64,000 bases of DNA, from positions 465 to 64,464 of the forward strand of contig JAZRDB010000006.1 of NCBI GenBank assembly GCA_045660045.1, in the 5' to 3' direction. The translations under genes and the position numbers were made by a program. The notes below the pieces were generated by a model. That model was not told the DNA's origin. It searched no databases and saw only the letters and a list, made by a program, of their open reading frames with translations. The DNA is from Alphaproteobacteria bacterium (GTDB lineage Bacteria; Pseudomonadota; Alphaproteobacteria; CAAHEQ01; UBA3637). Below, piece by piece: positions 5,133-54,631 of this stretch. Positions within the stretch are counted from its first letter, which is position 1, and every line of letters starts with the position of its first letter.

Positions 5133-5146
5133 AAAAGGAGATGAAA

Positions 5147-5656
5147 ATGACAAAACACAACAATGAATCTGGTCGTACCATGTTGGAAATGTTGGGCGTT
5201 TTGGCCATCATGGGTGTGATTATGTATGGTGCCATTGCGGGCATTGGTTTTGGTGTGAATATGTATAAAATCAACGCAACCTTTAATGAGGCAGAAGAAT
5301 TATCTCAAGGCATTATTGATCTTTATTCTTGGCGGCAAGGATATCCAACGGCGGACAAAATCGTGGACGCGGTTGTTGCTAATGATGTTCTATCAGGTGC
5401 GGAAGAAACCGGTGAGACATCTATAAATGCTCCATTTGGAGACTTTGTGATTACCGCTGCAGATGATGCAGGAGACAATCATTATAAAAAATTTGCAATT
5501 CAAATTAATGGGTTGCCATTGATTGCATGTTCAAGATTGCAGGTTATGTCATTTGCTAACATGAACGTTGTACAATTTGGAGAAGACAGTGGAATCCGAG
5601 GATGTACAACCGACTGTTCAAATGAGCCGGGTAATGTTTGTTTGGTGTTACGTTAA
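5147..5656 (+). CDS. Type IV pilin / pseudopilin-like protein (class III signal peptide)
   Basis: aaggag RBS. N-terminus is MTKHNNESG|RTMLEMLGVLAIMGVIMYG: a short basic leader, Gly, Glu at +5, then a hydrophobic helix. Two Cys lie near the C-terminus. The alternative start is 5141. Confidence 0.6.
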   Translation: MTKHNNESGRTMLEMLGVLAIMGVIMYGAIAGIGFGVNMYKINATFNEAEELSQGIIDLYSWRQGYPTADKIVDAVVANDVLSGAEETGETSINAPFGDFVITAADDAGDNHYKKFAIQINGLPLIACSRLQVMSFANMNVVQFGEDSGIRGCTTDCSNEPGNVCLVLR

Positions 5657-13673: not shown

Positions 13674-15047
13674 CTAATTGCGTTGGCTGCTGTTGGTGCG
13701 AGTTGCCACTAAATGGGCCGCGCGTTCACGAACTGCTGTGCGCATTTGGCTATTTTTCCAACGTTTGCGATCTGATGGTTCGTTTCGAACGTGGCATTCT
13801 TCTTGTGCAGTTTCGAAATCACGCGCCACATAAGCATCGGAAAACAATGGCCATTGGGTATTCAAATCATTACCTGTATTAAAAGCAATGTCTGTTGCAA
13901 CAGTTGCTGCGGCTAAAGGTACAGTATTTGTGTAAGAACCAAACATCACCGAGTTATCCGCAAAGTTAGTTGGCGCATGTGCTTGTAATGATTGTTCTGC
14001 TTTGGAAATAGTGGAAGCAGTTTTATTGGTAAAATAATTATCCAAAATACTTTGATCGTTTGGATTGATTGTTAAACCGTAAGTGGATTCATAATTGGCA
14101 GCCCTTTCCCCGTGATGATTTGCTCGTACATGTCTTGTCAGAGCTTGTAATTCAGCAACAGTTAATTGAATGTATTCTGCCCTGCTACGTTGAGCGGGAT
14201 TTGGATGGATGATTGTCTGAATGAAAGCAGAATTTTTAAAGTGTAACTGACGCAATAAATCAGGATGTGCTTCTAGGTTTAATCCAACACCAATGGTAGG
14301 ATGACCAAAAGCTTGGCCCAATGCATTGGTTGCATTATCCCAATAAATAAAATTCGTATTGCCTTCATAGGTGGACAAGGAATTTGTCATGCTGTCAAAC
14401 AACTGATAACGTTGAGATTGTTCAAATGCTGTTTGTGCAAAGTTAAATGTATTGGTGGGATTTGAAAGAGCTGTTATCAATGGTGTAAAACTAAACCATG
14501 TGTTTGTTCCCTCTATAACGCGAGTTAATTGATCTGTAGGAATATTTTCAGCCATGCGCACAAAATGAACAAAATTTGTTTGAGGCATATCAACTGCGTG
14601 ACAGACGTTATTTGTATCTGTGGATAATTTCTGTAATGCAGATGTGTATAACCACAATGTGTTTGTGGATGTATTTGTCGGCATAACCGATTGAATACTT
14701 CTGAACAAACGATTTGACACATTATTGGCTAATACAGCTTCGGCATCCGCCAAAACATTTGATGGGATCGGTTGCATTAAATCTGGAGGCAAAGCAACGC
14801 GTCCATCAACTAAATGTGTTATAGGTGCTGGTGCGGGATCGGGTAAATTATTTTTTGAGGACCGTGTCCCTTTAAACAACCCTAAACCACCCAAAGCAGC
14901 GATTGCAGAAATAATGGACAGTTTCGCCAAAACATGACGTCTTTTAGGAGGGATAAACCCTTTTGGCATGGGTCGAGGGATGAAAATATCTTCTGGATCT
15001 TCTTCCCACCAAATACCGTGGCGTTTTACGTAACGAAATCTAGTCAT
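13674..15047 (-). CDS. Membrane-anchored protein with a GH24 (phage/T4-type) lysozyme-like domain
   Basis: One TM helix ([19 protein letters not shown]) and an N/T/S-rich region. [10 protein letters not shown]...TIGVG matches the E-x8-D...T-I-G-x-G lysozyme core, and the later DIAFNTG resembles the lysozyme C-lobe. Confidence 0.45.
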
Positions 15048-15162: not shown

Positions 15163-15324
15163 ATGGATCAAGCATTATTTATCACAATTGCGGGAATGGG
15201 TGGTGTATTTGGTTTTTTGGTGCTGTTAATTGGTGCCATGAAGCTGTTGGCCTTTGTCGCGAAAGAGAATGCAAATATGGATAAAATTGCTGTGGCCATT
15301 GCATGTGCAAGGAGAAGAAAATGA
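15163..15324 (+). CDS. oadG: Oxaloacetate decarboxylase gamma subunit (53 aa; not in the ORF track)
   Basis: aaggggg RBS. The product MDQALFITIAGMGGVFGFLVLLIGAMKLL... is a single-TM small subunit. Its TGA overlaps the oadA ATG (ATGA at 15321-15324). Confidence 0.65.
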   Translation: MDQALFITIAGMGGVFGFLVLLIGAMKLLAFVAKENANMDKIAVAIACARRRK

Positions 15325-18230: not shown

Positions 18231-18272
18231 AAAAACTGTTGCAATTTTTATTGGTTTTATTAAAATAAAAAC

Positions 18273-21191
18273 ATGCGCATAAAGAATTGTATTTTCTTTG
18301 TTTTTGGATTTTTGCTTATGTCACTTTCGGCAAAGGCAGATGTAATGGCTATTCGTTTGCGTTTCGGGGCTGATGGTACATTAACAGATTTAGGAACTTC
18401 TTTAAGTTCAGAAAGTATGGCTCTGAGCAGCCCTATTGTTGAATCAGATGGTACGGTAACAGATCCAGTTGTTGCTGCGGCTGCGACAGAGGGAGAAACG
18501 GATGCACTGTTTTTAATGCCAGATGAGTCGAAAGATAATGACATAGACACCGATACAACAGATGCGGATGATGAGGAGACAAGCGGCTTGACAACGGCCG
18601 ACGAATCCGATGATTTGCGCAACACCGAAGGTGATGAGGAACCAGAAGAGGATCCTCCTTGTGAAGAGGGTTATCAACCGCGTCCAGATGGCGAATGTAT
18701 GTCCTGTCCAGCAAACGGCGAAATAATGACAATTGATGATGATCTGTATTATTGTTGCGGTAAGCGTGACGAAGATCCAACAAAGGACAAAGCGGGATAT
18801 GCATGGGAAAATGGTGCGTGGGTACAGAATATTAACTGTGGCTGTCCTTTGGGTGGCGAGACAAGTGAAGAGGATGATTCTGTTTGTTGTAAGGATGGTT
18901 ATACGTGGAGCAGAGCAACAGCAAGCTATACGGGGGTTGATCCGGCCGCTTGTGGATGCCCGAATGGTGGCGAACTGAACGAGGGTGAGTGTTGTAAAGA
19001 TGGGCGTGCATGGAATAGAACAGACTACACTGTCCTTAATGTGCCGGCGTGTGGATGTCCGTCTGGATCCACGCTTGAAGAGGATGTTTGTTGTGATGAT
19101 ACAAATCCAGGTACATTCCTTGATATGACGACTAGTACGTCAGATAAAGACAAAGCAATACGGTTGTGTGGTTGTCAAGAGGGAGAAACCATTATTACAT
19201 CCACGGGAGTTGCTGACGGATATGTGTGTTGTGGTAGCGATAAAAAGATTAAACGCAGCACTTCTAACATGGGAGATTTAACAGGTCAGGATGCAAAATA
19301 TTGTGGATGTACGTCGGGAGAATATTCAGAAAGCAAAGGGTGTGTACCTTGTTTGACTGACGCTTTTTGTTTGAATAATGGTTTGGGACGTGCCTGTTTA
19401 AAAAATGCAGATGTCACAAAACAAAAATGTGTTGAGTGTACACTGTCTGAACATTGTTATGAACAACCGTCGGGATGTTCAAATCCGAATACATGTTGTC
19501 CAGCATCCATCACAGACAAGGTATGTGATACCCAAACAAATACATGCAAGACATGTAGCGAGTTGACAAATAATATACGCCCAGTTCGTTGGCATGGGCT
19601 TGAGGATGTGAACTCTTGTAATTCATGTTATGAATGTACCGAGGATGCTCATTGTGCCTCGCGCATAGATGGCAAAAATATATGCGATCCGAATACGTTA
19701 ACATGTGAAGTGTGTATTTTGTATACAGAAACAAGCAACCAGAATCATGGATGTGAAAATGCGCAAACGGCTCCATTGGGTGTCGAGGATGAAAGATTTG
19801 CAGCGCCATATTGTGTTCTAAAAGACAAAAACGGAACGCGCCATTGTTCGGAATGCAGGAGTAATACGGATTGTCCGGCGGCGGACAGATCAAATTGTTT
19901 AGAAGAAAAGGGAATCTGCAGTATGGATTGCGGTAATATTGGTTTTAATCCAGAAACGGGCGAATGCCGATGCTCTGGGTCAACACCAGTCTTCAATATC
20001 TATACAAAAAAATGTGTTAAATGTTACGATTCCATTTCTGGGGCTTGGACTGATTTAGGATGTAATACCGAGCCGGATAAAACAAATTATCCTGCAGGAT
20101 CTCCATGGAATTATTCTCCATGGCAGGCGCCGAAGAGCAACAATAAACCAGTGTGTTGGGAAGATGGGGGAACAAACAAAACTGGTCAATGTGTGGAATG
20201 TATGGAAGATGGTCATTGTCCTGGGGACAAGCAATGTAATCAAAACACGCATACATGTGCGTGTCCGACGGATACAGTATGGGTTGAAAGTTCGGAAAAA
20301 TGTGCGCTATGTACAGCGAATTATGGGGCAACTTCCACAGGAAGAAAGTGTACTAGTGCAACAAAGCCATATTGTGGCTCAACGGGATGTACGTGTAAAG
20401 AGCCTTATAAATCTGATAAAAAAGATGGCGATGGCAAATGTCCAATAACACACCCCGGATGTAAGGACGGAGAATGCCAATGCCTTGGCGATTATGATAA
20501 AAATAAAAAAGATGGTGATGGTAAATGTCCAGAAAACAGACCAAAATGTGAGAACAAGGTTTGCAAATGTACAGGAAACTGGAAAGATAATCAATCTAGT
20601 ACTGGCGATTGTGTGGAAGGTATGCCTGTGTGTGATAATGGCGTTTGTAAGAAATGTGGCACAGGATTGGAATATAAGCTGTCCGAGCAAAAATGTGTGG
20701 CAAAAAGTTGTAAAAATGGAGAAGTGCTCAGTGGCGATACTTGTGTTTGTCCAAAAGGAAGATGGAAAAAAGGAAGTTCATGTCTTGCTTGTCCAACAGA
20801 TGGTTCTTGTACAACCATTGATGATACAACACCATGTCCAAGTACGGGTAAGCATGTGTTATTAGAACAAAGCGATAAGCCGGCCGCATGTGTTGCTTGT
20901 AAGGAACATACAGATTGTGCTGCAGGAAAATACTGCAAAGATAACGCATGTGTAAAATGTACTGAGGGATATGACTGTGGTTGTGGCAGCTTTAAGTGTG
21001 CAAATGGAGAAGGTGGATGCTTTACTCAGATACAATGGTGTCAAAAGAAGTTGGGCTCAAGTTACAATAAGAATCCATCGGAAAACGCTGCTTGTGCAGG
21101 ATATGTTTGCTGTAGCTATGCGAATAGTAAGTGGACGGGAAAGACACCATCTAATTGCACGGCCTGTGCATCGGGCAAGGCATGTCGCTAA
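18273..21191 (+). CDS. Very large secreted cysteine-rich modular protein (972 aa, about 107 Cys); function unknown
   Basis: Signal peptide MRIKNCIFFVFGFLLMSLSAKA|DV, then a D/E/T-rich acidic linker (aa ~85-129), then uninterrupted Cys-rich modules to the last residue. There is no TM helix or beta-barrel anchor. Confidence 0.85.
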   Translation: MRIKNCIFFVFGFLLMSLSAKADVMAIRLRFGADGTLTDLGTSLSSESMALSSPIVESDGTVTDPVVAAAATEGETDALFLMPDESKDNDIDTDTTDADDEETSGLTTADESDDLRNTEGDEEPEEDPPCEEGYQPRPDGECMSCPANGEIMTIDDDLYYCCGKRDEDPTKDKAGYAWENGAWVQNINCGCPLGGETSEEDDSVCCKDGYTWSRATASYTGVDPAACGCPNGGELNEGECCKDGRAWNRTDYTVLNVPACGCPSGSTLEEDVCCDDTNPGTFLDMTTSTSDKDKAIRLCGCQEGETIITSTGVADGYVCCGSDKKIKRSTSNMGDLTGQDAKYCGCTSGEYSESKGCVPCLTDAFCLNNGLGRACLKNADVTKQKCVECTLSEHCYEQPSGCSNPNTCCPASITDKVCDTQTNTCKTCSELTNNIRPVRWHGLEDVNSCNSCYECTEDAHCASRIDGKNICDPNTLTCEVCILYTETSNQNHGCENAQTAPLGVEDERFAAPYCVLKDKNGTRHCSECRSNTDCPAADRSNCLEEKGICSMDCGNIGFNPETGECRCSGSTPVFNIYTKKCVKCYDSISGAWTDLGCNTEPDKTNYPAGSPWNYSPWQAPKSNNKPVCWEDGGTNKTGQCVECMEDGHCPGDKQCNQNTHTCACPTDTVWVESSEKCALCTANYGATSTGRKCTSATKPYCGSTGCTCKEPYKSDKKDGDGKCPITHPGCKDGECQCLGDYDKNKKDGDGKCPENRPKCENKVCKCTGNWKDNQSSTGDCVEGMPVCDNGVCKKCGTGLEYKLSEQKCVAKSCKNGEVLSGDTCVCPKGRWKKGSSCLACPTDGSCTTIDDTTPCPSTGKHVLLEQSDKPAACVACKEHTDCAAGKYCKDNACVKCTEGYDCGCGSFKCANGEGGCFTQIQWCQKKLGSSYNKNPSENAACAGYVCCSYANSKWTGKTPSNCTACASGKACR
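18696..19352 (+). repeat. Coding repeat: six C-x-C-P-x-G-G-E ... C-C-x-D-G modules (aa 142-360)
   Basis: CMSCPANGE..CCGK; CGCPLGGE..CCKDGYTW; CGCPNGGE..CCKDGRAW; CGCPSGST..CCDD; CGCQEGET..CCGSD; CGCTSGEY..CVPC. Confidence 0.7.
20388..20648 (+). repeat. Coding repeat: three tandem 29-aa units (aa 706-792)
   Basis: CTCKEPYKSDKKDGDGKCPITHPGCKDGE / CQCLGDYDKNKKDGDGKCPENRPKCENKV / CKCTGNWKDNQSSTGDCVEGMPVCDNGV. The repeat is also visible in the DNA (aaaaaagatggYgatggYaaatgtcca occurs twice). Confidence 0.75.
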
Positions 21192-50437: not shown

Positions 50438-52637
50438 AAAAAAGAAAAAAGTTAAAATGCCGTTTTGGATAAAGGGCAGTGTTTGGATTGTTATCGGTTT
50501 ATTAATTGGTTTAAGTTTAATCAGTTATCATAAATGGGACGCATCATGGAATACGGCCTCCAGTTTGCCAACAGCCAATTGGCTTAGCGCACCTGGTGCG
50601 TGGATAGCCGATGCATTATTACAGGCGTTTGGAGGAGTGGCAATTCTTTTCCCAATTGTGTGTTTTATCTTTGGGATTTTTGTCTTTTTGAAAAAAGAGC
50701 ATATGCGTTGGCGTGTTTTTGGATTGTTGTTTGCCAGTATTGTGGCTTGTTGGTTGTTGGCAGGTGTTCATATGCAAGCCTCAGATTTGTTTAAGGCTGG
50801 TTGGGGTGGTTTTGTCGGTTGTTATATTGCCGCATGGTATGTTCCGTCTAAGGCAGTTATGGTTTTGGCATGGATGGTTGTGGCGGCTTTGGTTGTTTTT
50901 ACGTTGAAATTACCCGTTGTGAAGATGGGAGCTTTAACGGGAGCCGGTCTTTTGTGGAGTATGAAGAAGGTGCCTGTGAAAGTGCCTGAAAAAATTAAAA
51001 AGCCATTTAAAGCAATATATGTGAAAGCCCAGGTAAATAAGATTAAAAAATCGGCACCAAAAGAAAAATTAAAAGCAACAGCTGTCCATAAAAAGAAAGC
51101 CGATATCATGGCGGATTTGAACGAGGAAAGTACATACGAATTACCATCAAGCACGTTGTTGGCGCCAGTCAAAGAATCTTCTGGTCCTGTGCTAAGTAAG
51201 GAAATGATGGCTCATTATTCCGAAAAATTGGAAAATGTTTTGCGTGAATTCCAAGTACAAGGGAAAATTACCAAAGTGGCTCCCGGACCCGTAGTAACAT
51301 TATATTCATTTGAACCAGCTTCTGGTGTGAAAGTGTCGCGCGTGATTTCTTTGGCGGAAGATGTGGCTCGTGAAATGGAAGTGCAGTCCGTTCGGATGGC
51401 TGTGATTCCTGGAACTAATGCTATTGGTATCGAGATGCCTAATAAATCGCGTGAAACAGTTTATGTGCGCGAAATGATTGAGCAACCTTCTTTCCAAGAA
51501 CATACGGGTTCCTTGCCAATTATTTTGGGTAAAGATATTGGGGGGCATCCTGTGTACGCAGATTTGGCAAAAATGCCACATTTGTTGGTGGCGGGTACAA
51601 CTGGTTCTGGTAAGTCGGTAGGTATTAATACAATGATTTTGTCTTTGTTGTATCGCTTTACGCCAGAACAATGCCGTTTGATTTTGGTGGATCCAAAGAT
51701 GGTGGAATTGTCTGTTTATAATGGAATTCCTCATTTGTTGACGCCTGTGGTGACAGAGCCACAAAAGGCTTTGATGGCGCTTAAATGGGCAGTGCATGAA
51801 ATGGAAGATCGTTACCGGTCTATGAGTCAATTGGGCGTTAGAAATATCATCGGTTTCAATGAGAAACTAAAACAGGCCAAGGCTGAAGGAATTGAGTTAA
51901 AACGCCGTGTGCAGACGGGTTTTGACGCTGCAACAGGTGAGCCAATTATGGAAGATAAACCATTTGATTTAACGCCATTGCCATATATCGTCTTTATTAT
52001 TGATGAGATGGCCGATTTGATGGGGCAATGTGGTAAAGAAGCAGATCCATTGATTCAACGTTTAGCACAAATGGCGCGTGCGGTGGGTATCCACTTGATT
52101 TTGGCTACGCAACGTCCATCTGTGGATGTGATTACGGGTACAATTAAATCCAATTTCCCGTCGCGTATTTCTTTCCAAGTGCGCAACAAAATTGACTCAC
52201 GTACAATTTTGGATGAACAGGGGGCTGAACAATTGTTGGGACGTGGGGACATGCTATATATGCCCGCAGGCAACAAGCCGACTCGTGTGCATGGACCATT
52301 TGTGTCAGACGATGATGTGTTGGCGGTTGTAAAACATTGGTCGCATCAGGGAAGCCCGGAGTATGTGGATGCGGTTGTATCTGAGTCGGCGAATATGGCA
52401 GGTGGTGCTTTTGGGGGCGCAGGAAACAGCGGTGATGAGCTTTATGATAAAGCTGTCCAGATTGTGTTGCGTGACAAAAAACCAACAACCAGTTATATTC
52501 AACGGCGCTTGTCTATCGGCTATAATAAGGCCGCTGATTTGATCGATCGGATGGAGGCTGAGGGTATTATTTCGGCTCCAAATGTGGCAGGTAAACGAGA
52601 AATTTTGGCTCCTAACGCTGGTGGAGGCGAAGGATGA
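50430..52637 (+). CDS. ftsK: DNA translocase FtsK
   Basis: N-terminal TM helices, motor domain (GTTGSGKSVGIN, ATQRPSVDVITG), and gamma domain (IQRRLSIGYNKAADLIDRME). The ATG at 50430 sits behind ggaggg. Confidence 0.95.
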   Translation: MVKKKKKVKMPFWIKGSVWIVIGLLIGLSLISYHKWDASWNTASSLPTANWLSAPGAWIADALLQAFGGVAILFPIVCFIFGIFVFLKKEHMRWRVFGLLFASIVACWLLAGVHMQASDLFKAGWGGFVGCYIAAWYVPSKAVMVLAWMVVAALVVFTLKLPVVKMGALTGAGLLWSMKKVPVKVPEKIKKPFKAIYVKAQVNKIKKSAPKEKLKATAVHKKKADIMADLNEESTYELPSSTLLAPVKESSGPVLSKEMMAHYSEKLENVLREFQVQGKITKVAPGPVVTLYSFEPASGVKVSRVISLAEDVAREMEVQSVRMAVIPGTNAIGIEMPNKSRETVYVREMIEQPSFQEHTGSLPIILGKDIGGHPVYADLAKMPHLLVAGTTGSGKSVGINTMILSLLYRFTPEQCRLILVDPKMVELSVYNGIPHLLTPVVTEPQKALMALKWAVHEMEDRYRSMSQLGVRNIIGFNEKLKQAKAEGIELKRRVQTGFDAATGEPIMEDKPFDLTPLPYIVFIIDEMADLMGQCGKEADPLIQRLAQMARAVGIHLILATQRPSVDVITGTIKSNFPSRISFQVRNKIDSRTILDEQGAEQLLGRGDMLYMPAGNKPTRVHGPFVSDDDVLAVVKHWSHQGSPEYVDAVVSESANMAGGAFGGAGNSGDELYDKAVQIVLRDKKPTTSYIQRRLSIGYNKAADLIDRMEAEGIISAPNVAGKREILAPNAGGGEG

Positions 52638-53380
52638 AATGGGCACTTGTCTTGGGTGTATTGTGTATGTCTGTCGCCGCTAGAGCCGTCGATTGTCCGG
52701 AAGCTTTCCCCCTAAAAAGTGCTGATGGCAATTGTTATTCTTGTTATGACGATCGGTTTAATATACGTGTTTTAACTCCTGCCGATTGTACCGTATGTGA
52801 AAATAGAGAACTAGGAAAATATTACATTGACACTATTTCTGTTGGATTGGGGTGCCATAAAAAATGTCCCGATGAAGCCCCTATGGTGAATAGCAAAATG
52901 GATGGATGTTATGGGTGCGATACATCAGTTGTGGCTGTATCCCAAAATGAATGTACAAAATGTTTTAACAGAGAATTTGATAAAGGTCGTTGTTGGTTTA
53001 AAGACGAATCACAAGAGGCTACGGTGTGGAGATATTTAGCGCAAACAGGGAAGTGTCTTGATTGGTGTGAAGAAGAATTGGTTCTTGGAGAGTGTAATGA
53101 TTTATCCTCTCATGTATCAAGGCCAAAGGATTGTGGGAGCTGTTCTAATCGGATAATGGTTGGTAAATATTGTGCATTAAAGAAATGTCCAGACGATACC
53201 ATTCGCTCGAAGATTGGGGGGTGTTGGAGTTGTAATGATGAAATAATAAAACGTTTGGGCACTTCCGAGATTTTTCCTTCAAATCCAGAAAATACACCTG
53301 AATTTTCAAAAGAAGAGTGTCAAAAGTGTCCAGATTTGATTTATAAAAATGGTGTTTGTATAACAAGGAGTAAACGATGA
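52634..53380 (+). CDS. Secreted cysteine-rich CxxC-repeat protein (248 aa, about 25 Cys); function unknown
   Basis: Signal peptide MKWALVLGVLCMSVAARA. About four repeats of CxxC ... (D/E)CxxCxNR ... CxxxCP(D)(D/E). ATGA overlaps occur at both ends, with ftsK and with lolA. Confidence 0.75.
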   Translation: MKWALVLGVLCMSVAARAVDCPEAFPLKSADGNCYSCYDDRFNIRVLTPADCTVCENRELGKYYIDTISVGLGCHKKCPDEAPMVNSKMDGCYGCDTSVVAVSQNECTKCFNREFDKGRCWFKDESQEATVWRYLAQTGKCLDWCEEELVLGECNDLSSHVSRPKDCGSCSNRIMVGKYCALKKCPDDTIRSKIGGCWSCNDEIIKRLGTSEIFPSNPENTPEFSKEECQKCPDLIYKNGVCITRSKR

Positions 53381-54013: not shown

Positions 54014-54631
54014 ATGAAAAAGTTATTGTTACTATCCGCATGTTTGTTGGCAATGCCTGCTATGGCTCAGAAAATGGGAGAATGTGCTTTAACGCCACTC
54101 CAAAATTTAATTGTGAATGCACGTGGCGCAGAAGAAGTTCAAGCGCTGATTCAACGTGGTGTTGTCTTCGATGAACAAGTCCGTTGCGGTGGAACGTTGA
54201 CGCAGTTGGCGATTCGTCGTGGCAATCCAGATGTGTTGGAAGCTATTTTACGCCAAGATCAAAATCGAGCAAATGCAACGGTTGCATTGGATGCCTTTCC
54301 TATTGTGGGTGCTCCCAAACAAATTCCATTGATATTGTTCGCTGCGTATTATGCCCCAAATAAACAAATTATTGAATTGTTGGAGGCTGCTGGTGCCAAT
54401 ATCTCTGTCACTGATGATTTTGGTCGGAATTTGTTGTGGTATCTGAACAAAAATCCAGTACTCAGAAGAACAGCCCTTGAAGACGATTTGAATAATAAAT
54501 TGTTGTATGGTATGGTGGCTGCTCAAAGTTCTGATCAAGGACAAGGGGGAGCACAACAACAAGGACGTCCAGCACAACAAGCCGCTCCTGCTCCCACAAA
54601 GGAGCCAGCGGCTAATCTGGTTGCAGAATAA
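54014..54631 (+). CDS. Secreted ankyrin-repeat-like protein with a Q/G/A/P-rich tail
   Basis: Signal peptide MKKLLLLSACLLAMPAMA. ANK-like units include TPLQNLIVNARGAEEVQALIQRGV, GTLTQLAIRRGNPDVLEAIL, and IILFAAYYAPNKQIIELLEAAGANISVTDDFG. Confidence 0.5.
   Translation: MKKLLLLSACLLAMPAMAQKMGECALTPLQNLIVNARGAEEVQALIQRGVVFDEQVRCGGTLTQLAIRRGNPDVLEAILRQDQNRANATVALDAFPIVGAPKQIPLILFAAYYAPNKQIIELLEAAGANISVTDDFGRNLLWYLNKNPVLRRTALEDDLNNKLLYGMVAAQSSDQGQGGAQQQGRPAQQAAPAPTKEPAANLVAE

Follow-up and report, generated by a model that had tools for sequence, protein, structure and literature searches.

What would a gut bacterium do with a secreted protein in which 11% of the residues are cysteine? The question is raised by an open reading frame (ORF) at positions 18273 to 21191 on the forward strand of a 64-kb stretch of alphaproteobacterial DNA (hereafter, the window). 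Bacteria seldom make extracellular proteins that exceed 10% Cys and are built of eukaryote-style modules. The original prediction for this ORF was a secreted modular protein stabilized by disulfides or metal, possibly derived from eukaryotic repeats. Our analysis supports a real, selectively maintained gene: its orthologs are intact, it occupies a fixed chromosomal slot, and its ratio of nonsynonymous to synonymous substitution rates (dN/dS) is 0.18. Its product appears to be an exported protein and, on well-supported grounds, a member of a small, undescribed, lineage-restricted bacterial family. Judged from the sequence, the general kind, an extracellular Cys-rich repeat protein, is already known; what is new is the family and its modules.

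The carrier is an uncultured ruminant-gut alphaproteobacterium. It is a diderm because genes for lipopolysaccharide, the Lol system, and outer-membrane proteins are present; the window genes for TrcR, Hda, an ELM1-like protein, LpxK, KdtA, LolA, and an outer-membrane beta-barrel protein fit a diderm alphaproteobacterium. In a survey of metagenome-assembled genomes (MAGs) from the ruminant gut, uncultured Alphaproteobacteria of the order RF32 were described as abundant and as having reduced genomes (about 1.6 Mb; PMC8199421).

Export signal and cysteine pairing

The ORF starts with ATG and encodes 972 amino acids (aa). A script count gives 107 Cys (11.0%), in agreement with the figure of about 107 given originally. 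The N terminus has the layout of a canonical signal peptide, with a positively charged n-region (MRIK), a 14-residue hydrophobic core, and an SAKA|DV junction that places Ala at -3 and -1. Ala at -1 is found in 15 of 15 orthologs, and the A|DV site is invariant among them. These features support Sec export with cleavage by signal peptidase I after SAKA, the site originally predicted. A lipoprotein reading was rejected, as the signal peptide has no lipobox. The signal peptide is also the top hydropathy window of the whole protein and its sole strongly hydrophobic stretch. Because the best 19-aa Kyte-Doolittle window outside residues 1 to 30 reaches only 0.80, we consider the protein to be without a membrane anchor, as had been proposed.

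Cysteine counts bear on both the cleavage site and the state of the cysteines. After the A|DV cut, the number of Cys in the mature protein is even in all 15 full-length orthologs (106, 106, 102, 104, 96, 96, 102, 104, 102, 102, 112, 112, 128, 94, and 134; range, 94 to 134). Several orthologs have one Cys inside the signal peptide, and their uncleaved counts are odd. The chance of 15 even counts in 15 sequences is about 3e-5 if the sequences are independent and is in truth less extreme, since some of the orthologs are close kin. The even mature counts therefore support the A|DV cleavage site and complete disulfide pairing, and the same test could serve elsewhere as a cheap, reusable check on both. 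In an eight-sequence alignment, 62 of the 107 Cys never vary, and 85 occur in six or more of the sequences. Conservation of the Cys positions spans 83 to 100% overall; against distant orthologs, identity is 83 to 95% at Cys positions versus 23 to 38% at all others.

We consider it most likely that the protein is stabilized by disulfides. Metal, the other option in the original prediction, appears less likely: tetrathiolate metal sites, if they were the general rule, would be expected to use Cys in fours, yet several mature counts, among them 106, 102, and 94, are not divisible by 4. The density of CxxC motifs turned out to be ordinary for a protein of this composition: we observed 16 motifs, against 13.2 +/- 3.3 expected from the Cys content.

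Modules and family membership

Downstream of the signal peptide lies an N-terminal module that is kept in all positional orthologs, even in those with other modules downstream; AlphaFold2 suggests two strands in it at low confidence. The acidic linker that follows has the composition originally described (12 D, 9 E, and 7 T; net charge, -19) and a predicted local distance difference test (pLDDT) score of 25 to 40, and it differs in sequence and length between orthologs. About 840 aa of Cys-rich modules come after the linker. Self-BLAST of the protein gave no off-diagonal matches, and the modules were instead defined by pattern and hidden Markov model (HMM). The resulting layout is given in Table 1.

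Table 1. The Cys-rich gene and its parts, with positions in the window and regional dN/dS (L001 is one of the related loci)
Feature	Residues (aa)	Position	Strand	Content or basis	dN/dS
Sigma-70-like promoter: TTGCAA (18239-18244), 16-nt spacer, TAAAAT (18261-18266)		18239..18266	+	promoter scan	
Sec signal peptide (MRIKNCIFFVFGFLLMSLSAKA)	1-22	18273..18338	+	predicted cut before D23-V24	1.10 (22 codons, vs L001)
N-terminal module of mature protein (DVxAIxLRFxxDGTLTDxxTSL...)	23-84	18339..18524	+	conserved across orthologs	0.07-0.12
Acidic D/E/T-rich disordered linker	85-129	18525..18659	+	composition, low pLDDT	0.69 (vs L001)
Type-1 module array	130-345	18660..19307	+	C-x-C-P-x-G-G...CC-x-D-G-x-x-W, 4 Cys per unit	0.18-0.25
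Cys-rich region, type-2 starts at aa 357, 452, 525	346-540	19308..19892	+	pattern match	
Most conserved core, with ...TPVFNIYTKKCVKCYDSISGAWTDLGCN... and a type-2 unit at aa 640	541-705	19893..20387	+	conservation	0.07-0.12
Type-3 modules (C-x-C-x14-C-x6-C-x4)	706-791	20388..20645	+	three tandem units	
Variable Cys-rich C-terminal part, ending ...CTACASGKACR	792-972 + stop	20646..21191	+	type-2 unit at aa 873	0.25-0.35

Five type-1 units of the form C-x-C...CC (consensus, CGCPDGGELGSEKDGGICCKDGYAWNEDTESYDEVDPSK) start at aa 142, 189, 227, 260, and 299. The original prediction had six; the last, at aa 344, opens with CGC but lacks the CC pair and falls away. An HMM built from non-orthologous proteins only scores the window protein at 70 bits, compared with -2.8 for the best of 200 shuffles, and recovers two strong units (189-224 and 227-256), two partial units, and a weak one. 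The array is also the best-modeled part of the protein (aa ~190-330; pLDDT, 75 to 88), where AlphaFold2 predicts repeated two-hairpin units. The type-2 pattern (C-x2-C-x3-5-C-x4-9-C-x4-10-C-x1-3-C) matches at all five positions listed in Table 1, against 0.54 +/- 0.77 matches in shuffles of the Cys-rich part, in keeping with the five units originally reported. The Cys columns of the region at aa 346 to 540 are invariant in the ortholog alignment. The core reaches 66% identity to distant orthologs in the bin 551-600, and its motif is kept in 17 orthologs with conservative substitutions only; a separate AlphaFold2 model of aa 505 to 705 has a pLDDT of 68 and a predicted template modeling score of 0.57.

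The three tandem type-3 units are present, although not as identical in build as first described: they span aa 706-734, 735-763, and 764-791 (29, 29, and 28 aa rather than 29 each), and KKDGDGKCP occurs in the first two only. Their copy number varies between orthologs. No DNA-level tandem repeat was found in the type-3 region; the duplications are therefore old, and phase variation via DNA repeats was rejected on the same ground. The C-terminal part has 16 to 23% identity to distant orthologs, and several orthologs carry an unrelated, less Cys-rich C-terminal domain in its place. The mean pLDDT of the full-length model is 52.

No bacterial family had been recognized for the protein, and our searches bear this out. 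It has no match in Pfam or NCBIfam at E<=10, bearing in mind that HMMER filters may drop very weak Pfam matches, and none in PHROGs or PADLOC at E<=0.01. The models unmatched at E<=10 include those in Pfam for the Giardia variant-specific surface proteins (VSPs; PF03302), the Paramecium surface antigen (PF01508), furin-like, EGF, TNFR_c6, Dickkopf_N, and Chlam_OMP6 domains, and the Myxococcus repeat in both its NCBIfam (TIGR02232) and Pfam (DUF4215, PF13948) versions. The GCC2_GCC3 family that had been suggested, now Ephrin_rec_like (PF07699), is likewise not matched by the window protein at E<=10. The positional ortholog P0028 does pass this model, with 33.3 bits versus a gathering cutoff of 23.1; the family thus borders on this class of repeats, although the window protein itself does not belong to it. 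Searching PDB sequences with the family profile gave spurious matches only (E of 0.58 and 1.8), in the low-complexity N-terminal part. With Foldseek against the PDB, the full model gave a best E value of 0.12 and the core model one of 1.2, the confidence of these models being moderate to low. The top neighbors, all non-significant, are without exception eukaryotic cystine-ladder ectodomains: TNFR, the EphA2 Cys-rich domain, HER3 domain IV, furin repeats of R-spondin, EGF modules, and the Gal/GalNAc lectin of Entamoeba. A tblastn search of phages and plasmids gave no match, and a literature search on Cys-rich secreted proteins of gut Alphaproteobacteria found no relevant paper.

Relatives are few. 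A word-indexed search of 5.8 billion proteins returned 11, and an exhaustive profile search of 1.84 billion representative proteins returned 133 matches at E<=1e-3, 18 of them at E<=1e-30. About 17 matches are same-family proteins that share the N-terminal motif SP-A|DVxxIxFRFxxxGxIxDIxT. When 185,579 species-representative genomes were scanned with one conserved family motif, it was confirmed in two, Alphaproteobacteria bacterium UBA3650 and RGIG1600 (goat abomasum). The family appears to mark a little-known group of ruminant-gut Alphaproteobacteria.

The type-1 unit has a wider distribution, in long arrays of dozens of other unannotated proteins. Some of these have ordinary signal peptides and many have prepilin-type N termini (GRSMVEMLGVLAIIGVLS). 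One of the array proteins, P0085 (2,356 aa; MBQ4471687.1, II942_00350), comes from the same MAG as the ortholog P0007 (II942_02235). A database search with an alignment of single type-1 units gave no scored match, the profile being probably too short. Together, the type-1 and core motifs could seed family models that would take the label "hypothetical" off dozens of large proteins.

Two further window genes touch on this theme. The 171-aa protein encoded at 5141-5656 (+) has a prepilin-type N terminus (GRTMLEMLGVLAIMGVI; Pfam N_methyl E of 0.0017, below the cutoff). In its relatives (P0010, P0011, P0085, and many profile matches), the same N terminus is fused to giant CGCP...CC arrays of up to 2,356 aa, and these fusions suggest a display of Cys-rich domains by pilin-like proteins. 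A second secreted Cys-rich protein (52634-53380, +; 248 aa, 10.1% Cys) is encoded between ftsK and lolA, overlapping both. It has a signal peptide (MKWALVLGVLCMSVAARA|VD), 24 Cys in the mature part, and repeated KCPDxxP...GC(Y/W)xC units; no Pfam family matches it significantly, with two sub-threshold matches at E~0.1. Given this protein and the type-1 arrays elsewhere, cystine-rich exported proteins look like a theme of the lineage.

A divergent gene in a fixed slot

Upstream of the Cys-rich gene lie oadG (15163-15324), oadA, and oadB, and downstream lies the convergent rnhB, which overlaps its end by 4 nt (21188-21191); this is the arrangement originally noted. The slot between oadB and rnhB, within the same housekeeping block, is conserved in 7 of 7 related loci inspected, down to 26 to 27% identity of the Cys-rich protein, and the gene is intact in every ortholog examined. 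With intact orthologs, a supported signal peptide, and no match to a characterized family, the original prediction is not refuted on any of the three points set for it.

Within this stable block, no gene has diverged more than the Cys-rich one. In five loci, its product is 74, 39, 30, 26, and 27% identical to the window protein, whereas PEPCK, OadA, OadB, RnhB, and M16 peptidase lie between 71 and 98%, with 87 to 97% for PEPCK, 90 to 98% for OadB, 71 to 94% for RnhB, and 79 to 95% for M16 peptidase in the same loci. Its dN/dS is 0.175 to 0.18, versus 0.014 to 0.076 for the named neighbors and 0.11 for one other unknown gene. Orthologs also differ in module number, with modules gained and lost and the C-terminal domain swapped. 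Compared with the closest strain (L012, 2235-5144), nucleotide identity is mosaic, ranging from 77 to 99%: it is lowest (77 to 81%) at 18835-19293, in the type-1 region, and 81 to 83% at 19894-20193, and it rises to 96 to 99% at both gene ends and on into rnhB. This mosaic suggests recombination inside the gene. The G+C content of the gene is 43.5%, versus 40.8% for the whole window, and its third-position G+C content (GC3), 0.318, falls within the range of the other window genes (0.28 to 0.45). Recent horizontal transfer was rejected in view of the native codon usage and the slot conserved across the lineage.

The predicted promoter of the gene is largely conserved as well. AGGAG or GGAG precedes nearly all other window genes, whereas the Cys-rich gene has no Shine-Dalgarno (SD) sequence, as first noted. 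In its place, a sigma-70-like promoter (Table 1) ends 6 nt before the ATG. Six of the seven loci keep the hexamers, a spacer of 16 to 17 nt, and the 6-nt distance; one of the six is L007 (30% aa identity), where the intergenic region is otherwise different. In the seventh locus, L010, the promoter is absent and an SD-like AAAGGA stands in its place. A promoter that abuts the ATG predicts a leaderless mRNA, which would explain the missing SD, and we infer a transcription start on the first base of the ATG. In L007, a GC-rich hairpin with a T-run (CCCGTGGGTTCGCCCACGGGATTTTTTT; about 1095-1150) lies between oadB and the conserved promoter, which fits the Cys-rich gene as its own transcription unit.

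Other parts of the block vary as well. In four related loci, an M16 peptidase gene is inserted between oadA and oadB (L001, 5569-6828; L004, 5571-6830; L011, 5562-6830; L012, 2-1063), at the position corresponding to the 17102/17103 junction of the window. The inserted gene is complete, at ~420 aa, in three of these loci, to which the Pfam look-up applies; the L012 copy is cut by the contig end. In the window and in L010, oadB follows oadA directly. A second M16 gene lies downstream of rnhB in all loci that reach that far. The second fastest-evolving gene of the block (13674-15047, -; 30 to 78% identity, dN/dS of 0.11) encodes a protein of 457 aa that has no annotation; a single membrane helix is predicted in it, and its C terminus weakly resembles pesticin/lysozyme (E of 0.004, below the cutoff).

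Possible roles outside the cell

On balance, and with modest confidence, we favor a real, exported, disulfide-laddered extracellular protein that contacts something outside the cell, probably as a surface or adhesion protein. The gene's own promoter would yield a leaderless mRNA, whose product would be exported by Sec and cut at SAKA|DV. In the periplasm, all 106 remaining Cys would be oxidized into about 53 disulfides, and the mature protein would be an extended chain of small beta-hairpin modules, each laddered by disulfides. The N-terminal module, for which we propose a role as a retention or secretion handle, would either hold the protein at the cell envelope or hand it over to an outer-membrane export route. 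The acidic disordered spacer would come next, followed by a Cys-rich stalk presenting the conserved core and the variable distal end, and this end would touch the host surface, feed particles, other microbes, or phage. Such outside contact would explain why the protein diverges far faster than its neighbors, and diversifying selection on the mature protein is plausible.

Several observations weigh against this picture. Within the mature protein, dN/dS stays below 1 wherever an estimate was possible, and the fast divergence could thus reflect relaxed constraint rather than diversifying selection. A motif scan of all DNA analyzed, which for this genome amounts to 64 kb, for ORFs with a thioredoxin motif or Dsb-like character found none, and the gut lumen is reducing, making the persistence of exposed disulfides uncertain. 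More than half of the full-length model falls below a pLDDT of 50. The N-terminal module is modeled at a pLDDT of about 35, and the role assigned to it is a guess. Finally, searches of Pfam and NCBIfam recognized no known anchor, adhesive domain, or secretion signal.

Among known systems, the layout is reminiscent of bacterial fibrillar adhesins, which are similarly long, with a conserved end, a repetitive stalk (here, of modules found above chance), a variable distal end, and variation in repeat number. Unlike in those adhesins, the stalk here consists of cystine-rich mini-modules in place of Ig-like or beta-solenoid repeats, and neither Pfam nor NCBIfam recognizes an LPXTG motif, an autotransporter barrel, a type I secretion retention module, a type IX secretion C-terminal domain, or an adhesive domain. 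The chlamydial envelope proteins OmcA and OmcB rely on many disulfides for their function; they have no sequence relationship to the window protein (Pfam), and OmcB is much poorer in Cys and is not built of modular repeats. Repeats similar to the type-2 pattern (CVEC-x4-HC...C...CxC) occur in the weak matches P0108, P0132, and P0100, which by eye look like proteins of high-GC bacteria and have no Pfam family. In this respect the pattern recalls the Myxococcus repeat and comparable CxxC-x4-DC repeats in secreted proteins of Myxococcota; the curated models of the Myxococcus repeat do not match the window protein. Should the protein prove to be a surface coat or adhesin, it would open a way to study how these uncultured organisms adhere to, or escape, hosts, grazers, and phages. 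Its conserved N-terminal module could be the mark of a sorting route not yet described.

The alternatives differ mainly in what the cysteines and the variable regions would be for. It is conceivable, although we doubt it, that the lineage, possibly with reduced genomes, has evolved its own toolkit of cystine-rich modules, the CGCP...CC type-1 unit among them, and with it a bacterial counterpart of the VSPs and ciliate surface antigens, a variable disulfide-armored coat or host-ligand mimic. The modules would be displayed on Sec-exported proteins with a new N-terminal sorting or retention module (SP-A|DVxxIxFRF...) or as fusions to prepilin-type N termini, and the route of export or anchoring would be new. 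The Giardia VSPs and ciliate immobilization antigens share with the window protein a Cys content of about 11%, a signal peptide, a gut-lumen setting, and rapid diversification on a fixed Cys scaffold. In contrast to these antigens, we find a single syntenic gene and not a switching multigene repertoire, and CxxC is not enriched; the VSPs also have a C-terminal transmembrane helix and a CRGKA tail, whereas the window protein has neither and ends in ...CASGKACR. Slightly less probable, in our view, is a mimic of eukaryotic receptors or ligands, in which TNFR-, ephrin-receptor-, or furin-like modules acquired by transfer or convergence would bind a host or protist ligand. Ectodomains of this sort are also secreted rods of small beta-hairpin modules held by conserved Cys pairs. 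The Ephrin_rec_like score of P0028, the uniformly eukaryotic ectodomain modules among the top, though non-significant, fold neighbors, weak profile matches to proteins that look ciliate-like by eye (E of 1e-9 to 1e-4), and a secreted ankyrin-repeat protein also encoded in the window all speak for it. Yet the matches to ciliate-like proteins rest mainly on Cys spacing, the window protein itself fits no eukaryotic repeat model, and the type-1 CGCP...CC unit, the N-terminal module, and the YDSISxxWTDLGC core are without counterpart in those ectodomains. The window protein is, moreover, bacterial and chromosomal, with native codon usage and a lineage-wide slot that excludes recent transfer. For these reasons, the originally suggested derivation from eukaryotic repeats finds no support: GC3 is native, the slot is the same in 7/7 loci, the VSP, Paramecium, and Myxococcus models are unmatched, and the fold resemblance to TNFR, EphA2, furin-like, and EGF domains is non-significant (E>=0.1).

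We regard as improbable a periplasmic metal-binding or redox-buffering protein whose Cys would act as thiolate ligands for Zn, Fe, or Cu or as a thiol sink. The 11% Cys, the 16 CxxC motifs, an anaerobic and reducing habitat, and the metal binding reported for Giardia VSPs would fit such a function. The chance-level CxxC content, the even counts that are not multiples of 4, the lack of His enrichment (10 in 972 aa), and the resemblance of the predicted hairpin modules to disulfide-laddered domains do not, and fast divergence with domain swapping would be unusual in a metal buffer. Domain swapping behind a conserved N-terminal part, together with the mosaic identity between strains, is what one would expect of a secreted polymorphic toxin, antimicrobial, or competition factor with an active, variable C-terminal end. 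We find this very improbable: Pfam, NCBIfam, PHROGs, and PADLOC reveal no toxin domain, the following gene is the convergent rnhB and not a candidate for immunity, and the gene is single copy in a housekeeping slot. That the ORF is non-functional, either a chance ORF or a decaying pseudogene, deserves practically no credence despite the missing SD and the lack of an annotated homolog. The 2.9-kb frame is intact in every relative, the promoter is conserved, and the low dN/dS and the 62 Cys invariant over eight sequences already refute a pseudogene. The favored reading remains a disulfide-laddered extracellular protein with an outside contact.

Other secreted proteins are encoded elsewhere in the window. 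Three tandem paralogous genes at 35999-38577 (+) encode transglutaminase-like proteins of 286, 282, and 269 aa, all of which carry a signal peptide. The ankyrin-repeat protein mentioned above is encoded at 54014-54631 (+) and matches Ank_4 with 27.3 bits versus a cutoff of 22.7; secreted proteins with ankyrin repeats are frequently associated with bacterial interactions with eukaryotic cells.

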